DNA of 16,389 nucleotides, taken from IMG/VR virus record IMGVR_UViG_3300043466_002831, positions 121,364-137,752 of that record; one strand, 5' to 3'. Under the pieces are notes generated by a model. That model was not told where the DNA came from, did no database searches, and saw nothing but the letters and a program-made list of their open reading frames with translations. Positions 15,158 through 15,511 of this stretch are shown here, in pieces. Numbering within the stretch: position 1 is the first letter of the stretch; each line of letters starts with the position of its first letter. Source of the DNA: a virus. Taxonomy: Duplodnaviria > Heunggongvirae > Uroviricota > Caudoviricetes. A program made the translations under genes and the position numbers.

Positions 15158-15313
15158 ATGAAAATAAACATTTATGCGGTTATTATTCTTTTGGTGAATT
15201 TTTCGTTTTCTGTATTTGCAATACACAAATCAAATACATATCAAACACCATCAAAAGATAGTATAAATCAAATAGATTCAGTTTTTTCAATAAAAATATT
15301 TGACAAAAAATAA
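15158..15313 (+). CDS. Small secreted/membrane hypothetical protein (51 aa)
   Basis: MKINIYAVIILLVNFSFSVFA signal-peptide-like N-terminus. Confidence 0.55.
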   Translation: MKINIYAVIILLVNFSFSVFAIHKSNTYQTPSKDSINQIDSVFSIKIFDKK

Positions 15314-15346
15314 ACTTTTACTATACTTCAGTATAATTATAATACA

Positions 15347-15448
15347 ATGAGAACAACAATGGTCCATATTTCGTCGTTTAAGCAACAAGAGATTTGTAGC
15401 TGGTATCGCTATGTGGAAAATTGTAGTTCGGAAAATAAGGTAAAATAA
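15347..15448 (+). CDS. Putative attenuator leader peptide 2 (33 aa)
   Basis: MRTTMVHISSFKQQEICSWYRYVENCSSENKVK*; AGTTCGG (15425-31) is complementary to terminator arm CCGAACT (15478-84); TTGACA-N16-TATACT upstream (15300-15327). Confidence 0.75.
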   Translation: MRTTMVHISSFKQQEICSWYRYVENCSSENKVK

Positions 15449-15472
15449 CAAGTTAGAAATAACAATAAGGTT

Positions 15473-15511
15473 AAACCCCGAACTTCTAAAAAAAGTTTGG
15501 GGTTTTTTTTT
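15473..15511 (+). terminator. Attenuator terminator 2
   Basis: AAACCCCGAACTT-CTAAAAA-AAGTTTGGGGTTT followed by T6. Confidence 0.9.

Follow-up and report, generated by a model that had tools for sequence, protein, structure and literature searches.

The unit that precedes the second tRNA array of a large, uncultured lake-water phage, which we call unit 2, is probably a transcription attenuator of the ribosome-mediated, leader-peptide type, which would control how far transcription from the leader promoter reads through into this array. Judging from sequence, we put the probability of this reading at roughly three in four. Unit 2 fulfils every structural criterion of a leader-peptide attenuator, and the exception lies in the class of genes that would be regulated: downstream of leader 2 are solely tRNA genes and small untranslated RNAs, and no amino-acid biosynthesis or aminoacyl-tRNA synthetase genes are present. 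An attenuator had been proposed in an earlier note on this DNA, and the proposal has withstood every computational test applied, with most of the support coming from related phages.

The phage genome is a single contig of 137,752 bp with 33% G+C, and the stretch of DNA analysed here (the window) is its final 16.4 kb. The phage is described as infecting Flavobacterium-type bacteria; its exact host is unknown. Fourteen of the 15 tRNA genes in the genome lie in the window, all on one strand. Array 2 follows unit 2, and array 1 (Pro...Leu) follows a sister unit, unit 1. The leader promoter, the 33-codon ORF, the complementary AGTTCGG and CCGAACT sequences, the 13-bp terminator, the boxA-like element and the tRNA genes are all found where the earlier note had placed them (Table 1), and the complementarity between codons 27-29 and the 5' arm of the terminator is indeed perfect. 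Its list of elements was incomplete, as a second promoter, P2, between the terminator and the boxA-like element had been missed.

Table 1. Positions of the elements of unit 2, of the first tRNA genes that follow it and of the sister unit, numbered from the first nucleotide of the window
Feature	Position	Strand	Details
Sister unit, leader 1	11605-11790	+	Promoter, 27-codon ORF, GTGTTCAG/CTGAACAC pairing, terminator; before Pro...Leu array
Leader 2 promoter	15300-15327	+	TTGACA 15300-15305, 16-nt spacer, TATACT 15322-15327
Leader 2 ORF	15347-15448	+	33 codons and stop; MRTTMVHISSFKQQEICSWYRYVENCSSENKVK
Leader 2 codon zones			Codons 5-24 all cognate to array-2 tRNAs; codons 2-4 and 25-33 structural
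Segment 1	15351-15369	+	GAAC.ACAAU..UCCAUAU; predicted partner is segment 2 when the ribosome is absent
Segment 2	15411-15431	+	AUGUGGA...AUUGU.AGUUCGG; 3' part AGUUCGG is the 5' strand of the predicted antiterminator
AGTTCGG	15425-15431	+	Codons 27-29; perfect complement of CCGAACT 15478-15484
Intrinsic terminator	15473-15511	+	13-pair hairpin 15473-15505 with one G-U pair; T-run to 15511
Terminator 5' arm (segment 3)	15473-15485	+	Includes CCGAACU 15478-15484
Terminator loop	15486-15492	+	
Terminator 3' arm (segment 4)	15493-15505	+	AAGUUUGGGG
Second promoter P2	15543-15550	+	Bacteroidota sigma-A type -7 box TATCTTTG
boxA-like element	15573-15582	+	GTTCTTTGAC; rrn-type antitermination box, on the basis of sequence only
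tRNA-Val (TAC)	15600-15672	+	
tRNA-Glu (TTC)	15679-15751	+	
tRNA-Phe (GAA)	16052-16125	+	Array continues past contig end in relatives

The leader 2 promoter matches the sigma-70 consensus at 11 of 12 positions, and its TTGACA is invariant in five relatives. Sites of the form TTGAC[AT]-N16-18-TATA[AC]T occur four times in the 137.7-kb genome, where about one is expected, and two of the four head the two leaders. The geometry of the promoter (-33 TTG, 20 nt, -7 box) is that of host promoters; with this spacing between TTG and box, a sigma factor of the phage's own is not required, and it is not excluded. A 51-amino-acid hydrophobic small ORF (MKINIYAVIILLVNFSFSVFAIHK...) at 15158-15313 ends within the leader 2 promoter; it is present in the relative L108, and L005 and L046 have a different gene at that place.

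Phage genes are also preceded by the -7 box of Bacteroidota sigma-A, TAnnTTTG. The Bacteroidota consensus (-33 TTG / -7 TAnnTTTG) has been confirmed for Flavobacterium, and leader-peptide attenuation has been indicated for amino-acid operons of Flavobacterium psychrophilum (PMC9723704), which makes this type of control plausible in the host of the phage. Genome-wide, there are 22 copies of the box TATCTTTG on the + strand and 7 on the - strand, mostly 4-5 nt 5' of an ATG. P2 carries a TAnnTTTG box at the right distance from transcribed genes, but is without a -33 TTG. In this genome, GTTCTTTGAC or one-base variants of it follow a promoter before both tRNA arrays, before tRNA-Met and before a GOLLD RNA, and the element is also found 5' of tRNA arrays in many other phages; there are no NusB/S10 binding data in either case.

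The 175-nt leader 2 has a predicted folding energy of -44.3 kcal/mol (z -4.8), and none of 200 shuffled sequences folds as well. The terminator hairpin begins 24 nt 3' of the leader stop codon and is followed by a run of nine T. The energy comparison that had been suggested in the earlier note yields -16.9 kcal/mol for the terminator, in which segments 3 and 4 pair (3:4), and -10.6 kcal/mol for the antiterminator, in which segments 2 and 3 pair (2:3; AGUUCGG:CCGAACU and GGU:ACC). A transcript that lacks the 3' arm of the terminator is predicted to fold into the 2:3 antiterminator. The complete leader is predicted to form the terminator along with a hairpin of codons 2-8 with codons 22-28 (1:2), an anti-antiterminator that was absent from the earlier note, which had recognised only the competition between 2:3 and the terminator. 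Because segment 2 has GUUC in common with the antiterminator, the three pairings are mutually exclusive. Rfam searches of leader 2 at gathering and permissive thresholds (E up to 5) detected no T-box, leader or sRNA family; matches to NsiR1, RT-11 and mir-971 were far below thresholds, lay merely on the terminator hairpin and were rejected.

If unit 2 is an attenuator, RNA polymerase would start near 15335, and a ribosome would translate the 33-codon ORF, whose codons 5-24 would need the downstream tRNAs (Val, Glu, Phe, His, two for Ser, two for Ile, Lys, Cys, Trp, Tyr, Gln, Arg and Met). Slow decoding of any of these sensor codons would stall the ribosome 5' of segment 2, the 2:3 pairing would form, no terminator would arise, and polymerase would continue past P2 and boxA to transcribe the tRNA genes. 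With fast decoding, the ribosome would mask segment 2 while the terminator is being synthesized, so that 3:4 could form and transcription would stop at the T-run. In the absence of a ribosome, 1:2 and 3:4 would both be expected to form, and transcription would likewise stop. The outcome would be negative feedback, in which the phage tRNA supply is topped up when decoding capacity is short, on top of the basal output of P2. Translation of the ORF, transcription-translation coupling, stalling and conditional termination are all inferred, without bench data, and coupling in the unknown host is an assumption.

The evidence that ties the leader to its array comes from codon content. The earlier note had pointed out that the leader codons include Val, Glu and Phe codons, which is correct but is weak evidence when taken alone. 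Since the contig stops 880 nt further on, only tRNA-Val, tRNA-Glu and tRNA-Phe of array 2 are visible in this genome, and the strong match is obtained with array 2 as it exists in relatives. We found relatives by two routes: a neighbouring protein led to L005, and the pattern TATCTTTGT-N8-38-GTTCTTTGAC in viral contigs led to L006-L112. In L005, L030, L046 and L108, unit 2 is 93-95% identical and the flanks are ~83% identical. Three of these contigs (L046, L005 and L030) reach the end of array 2, which consists of Val, Glu, Phe, His, Ser(tga), Ile(gat), Lys, Cys, Trp, Tyr, Gln, Arg(acg), Met, Ile(tat) and Ser(gct); in the contig of L108, array 2 ends at His. None of the sequence of the 12 further tRNAs (His to Ser(gct)) was found anywhere in the genome studied here, which indicates that the contig is simply cut and that the record is incomplete at this end. 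A circular contig with an array 2 that ends at Phe can be ruled out, as relatives continue with the 12 tRNAs that are missing from the assembly. At the very end of the contig (16365-16389), an ORF behind a TATCTTTG promoter is cut 13 nt after its start. Megablast and blastn searches with unit 2 against 50,697 deposited phage genomes returned tRNA matches or nothing, and revealed no cultured relative there.

Under strict wobble rules, the codons of leader 2 are cognate to all 15 anticodons of array 2 as taken from these relatives, not from this genome. Random in-frame windows of 33 codons from long ORFs of the phage cover 9.3 anticodons on average, and none of 20,000 such windows reaches 15. 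Of the 264 small ATG-initiated ORFs of 28-40 codons in the genome, just one besides leader 2 covers all 15. The match is confined to one part of each leader: codons 5-24 of leader 2 are all cognate to array 2 only, codons 3-20 of leader 1 are all cognate to array 1 only, and the helices are formed by precisely the non-cognate parts, namely the first codons and the tail. The matching zone of leader 2 extends to about codon 24, the position from which the front of a ribosome would start to mask AGUUCGG. Both Ser isoacceptors are polled (TCG and AGC), and in relatives so are both Ile isoacceptors (ATT and ATA). The bias of leader 2 toward GC-ending codons that the earlier note described is real but modest (8 of 18, versus 3.8 expected; P 0.02). 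Several of the codons are rare in the phage's own genes (AGC 2%, CGC 1%, TCG 6% and GTC 6% of synonymous usage), and may have been picked as the most tRNA-limited read-outs.

Conservation was observed directly, as were the sequence elements, the codon match and the fold energies. Within the 102-nt leader 2 ORF, only four columns vary among five phages whose flanks are ~83% identical; the two that lie in the sensor zone leave the amino acid unchanged, and the remaining ones fall in codon 31. Short ORFs are common in AT-rich DNA, as the 264 small ORFs of this genome illustrate, and it is conceivable that the leader is a chance ORF beside an ordinary terminator in an AT-rich intergenic region. 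An ORF conserved far above its flanks, the fold z-score, the codon coverage that no random window attained, and the recurrence of the design in unrelated sequence families leave this explanation with scarcely any credibility. The five close relatives show no compensatory change in the 1:2 helix, of which L005 and L030 have lost one C-G pair (GTG to GTA) without compensation.

Covariation was directly observed at a greater distance. The earlier note had considered units 1 and 2 to be unrelated in sequence, which holds only in part: their terminators have a CCCnGAAC core in common and differ by compensatory changes. It had also taken the second occurrence of the architecture as support for function, and this inference is strengthened by the recurrence of the design, with codons matched to the adjacent array, in families that are unrelated in sequence. 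With an unbiased rule (an ORF that ends at most 75 nt 5' of a terminator, then a tRNA), we detected leaders in six or more other phage groups whose leaders are sequence-unrelated and whose arrays are partitioned differently. Two of them, L017 and L061, have two leaders each. Codon coverage is complete for L017-a (13/13 anticodons), L061-a (15/15), L061-b (8/8) and L007 (8/8), and stands at 14/15 for L027 and 10/11 for L086. The three alternative pairings are predicted in nearly all of the other units. The 2:3 helix changes in step on its two sides, from GUGUUCAG:CUGAACAC in unit 1 to AGUUCGG:CCGAACU in unit 2 and AGUUCAG:CUGAACU in L061-a, and the antiterminator pairing covaries with the terminator across unrelated families. 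On average among 11 units, the leader tail pairs with the terminator arm of its own unit at -11.2 kcal/mol and with those of other families at -7.1 kcal/mol (P 2e-4), and the head pairs with the tail at -13.4 kcal/mol within units versus -8.5 kcal/mol across families (P 7e-5). The mean length of the longest Watson-Crick run is 7.1 for own pairs and 4.8 for cross pairs. Leader 1 also contains, in another frame, a 16-codon ORF (MAEGEIYAHVFRFNQR, 11684-11734) that is retained in relatives; its conservation is probably a by-product of that of the DNA.

The position of P2 invites another explanation, according to which the ORF is an independent micro-gene, or its transcript a small RNA, while the tRNAs are transcribed from P2 only and the terminator serves as insulation. 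P2 and boxA do lie between the terminator and the tRNAs, and arrays without any leader exist that have the same arrangement: in L021, L025, L071, L072 and L096 (for example, L021:11384-11484), a terminator, a TATCTTTG promoter, a boxA and a tRNA array follow one another without a leader ORF, and in the L021 group a gene for a 260-amino-acid protein ends 1-2 nt 5' of the terminator. A terminator and P2 without a leader imply that the leader has been added to the arrangement and is not indispensable, and the terminator in the leaderless arrays of L021, L025 and L071 may be a simple insulator. However, this account leaves the 15/15 codon match, the specificity of leaders for their own arrays, and the covarying 2:3 and 1:2 helices unexplained. 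It also fails for units in which the tRNAs follow the terminator without a promoter. The first tRNA of L017-a, L086 and L027 lies ~10 nt 3' of the T-run, L061-a has a boxA but no promoter box between terminator and tRNAs, and in all four, which have canonical TAnnTTTG promoters 5' of the leader, transcription can enter the array only by way of the attenuator. We regard a separate micro-gene or small RNA as very unlikely.

The identity of the sensed variable is a separate question. The same attenuator could respond to amino-acid supply, in the form of tRNA charging, instead of tRNA amount, and its link to downstream tRNAs would then reflect a general input on growth state. Classical leader peptides are established sensors of charged tRNA, and in sequence data the absence of a tRNA looks the same as its lack of charging. 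Against this, extra tRNA gives no relief of amino-acid starvation, and the division of codons between leaders follows the division of tRNA genes between arrays and shifts with it in other phages, a pattern to be expected only if the variable that matters is the array's own set of tRNAs. When every leader was scored against every array, the leader's own array ranked top for 8 of 11 leaders. We therefore consider amino-acid supply an unlikely signal.

With tRNA availability as the preferred signal, a broader role can be imagined for the two leaders. Between them, leaders 1 and 2 would cover all 20 amino acids, each leader on behalf of its own array, and could act as a codon-by-codon monitor of decoding. 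Phage-induced shut-off or anticodon-nuclease defence systems may deprive the host of particular tRNAs; a ribosome would then stall on exactly the codon of the lost tRNA, and the array with the replacement would be switched on. That these units constitute a self-tuning counter-defence circuit that is widespread in large phages is a possibility that we raise only tentatively, and it may well prove incorrect.

Several features could limit the effect of an attenuator at this position. Because P2 and boxA lie between the terminator and tRNA-Val, the switch in unit 2 would only add to a basal output, and the tRNAs do not depend on read-through. The regulated share of array-2 output is thus limited by P2, and its size is unknown. 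Each array-2 tRNA is represented by one to three leader codons, without a run such as those in hisL and pheL, and sensitivity to a moderate shortage may therefore be low. Four metatranscriptome runs contain matching RNA, available as assembled contigs only, in which neither transcript ends nor levels are visible, and which speak neither for nor against a switch. Contig depth is 0-1 in leader bins and 10-2000 in tRNA and ncRNA bins, which for assemblies conveys no information on levels. One contig of 848 nt ends at 15523, which is not evidence on termination, and two low-depth contigs, which are not evidence on the switch, cover 15295-15440 and, in unit 1, 11655-11830 across terminator 1.

The design resembles that of trpL, hisL, pheL, leuL, thrL and the multivalent ilvGMEDA and thr leaders in its promoter, short ORF, mutually exclusive 1:2, 2:3 and 3:4 pairings and intrinsic terminator. 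As in those amino-acid-operon attenuators, the regulatory codons lie 5' of segment 2, and the predicted read-out is the position of the ribosome while the terminator is transcribed. Unit 2 differs from them in that it is encoded by a phage, is associated with tRNA genes instead of biosynthetic enzymes, polls its one to three codons for each of ~15 tRNAs at the level of isoacceptors (TCG/AGC for Ser, ATT/ATA for Ile), and has a second promoter 3' of the terminator. T-box riboswitches similarly couple the state of specific tRNAs to a choice between terminator and antiterminator 5' of translation-related genes. However, T-boxes recognise uncharged tRNA by direct binding, with their specifier loop and T-box sequence, and require no translation, whereas unit 2 has a conserved ORF; on its sequence, unit 2 is not a T-box. 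There is also a resemblance to rrn-type boxA antitermination and to the tandem P1 and P2 promoters of E. coli rrn operons (compare PMC5179076), in that a boxA-like GTTCTTTGAC follows a stable-RNA promoter and tandem promoters feed one stable-RNA operon. Unlike in E. coli rrn, the upstream promoter of unit 2 would be gated by a translated leader and a terminator, and no binding of NusB/S10 to the box has been demonstrated.

Large phages carry large one-strand tRNA arrays, which are thought to sustain translation late in infection or after tRNA cleavage. Accounts of phage tRNA arrays concern their content, and a cis-acting sensor that controls their expression was not found described in the literature searched; full-text searches likewise retrieved no description of leader-peptide control of tRNA genes. 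Leader-peptide attenuation has been textbook material for fifty years, and to our knowledge it is known for amino-acid and synthetase genes and not for tRNA genes. If the attenuator reading is correct, phages regulate tRNA arrays by feedback from decoding speed itself, which would explain why large arrays are not a permanent burden and why they are divided into blocks. It would also provide a sequence rule whereby the codon set of a leader predicts the content of its array, and this rule could serve in annotating arrays, in detecting missing or odd tRNAs, and in predicting the codons that are limiting for translation in the infected cell. The timing of the need for phage tRNAs, and the reason for it, could be tested directly, and the leaders would offer compact natural parts for synthetic circuits that sense many tRNAs simultaneously.

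Several other RNAs accompany the tRNA genes of this phage. The isolated tRNA-Met (genome positions 37264-37338) lies just 5' of the GOLLD RNA (RF02032, 327 bits, E 6e-94; L001:1417-1824, or genome positions 37916-38323), and each of the two is preceded by a TATCTTTG promoter and a boxA-like box (GTTCTTTAAC and GTTCTTTGAA). Within array 1, the 371 nt from tRNA-Gly(tcc) to tRNA-Asp (12754-13124) are free of ORFs, have a fold z-score of -2.46 and no Rfam match, and are represented in RNA contigs of four metatranscriptomes; this stretch is a candidate structured RNA. The interval from tRNA-Glu to tRNA-Phe (15785-16048) has its own TATCTTTG promoter (15785), followed by ~250 nt without ORFs; its fold z-score is only -1.67 and it has no Rfam match, and 15830-15927 occurs in RNA contigs of several runs. 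Finally, 16199-16335 corresponds to a tRNA-like RNA of unresolved nature that has an acceptor stem, a GGTTCGAGTCC T-arm and an insertion of ~60 nt. ARAGORN does not call a tRNA there, and calls a 92-nt "Pro(cgg)" in the homologous sequence of L005 (8714-8805).
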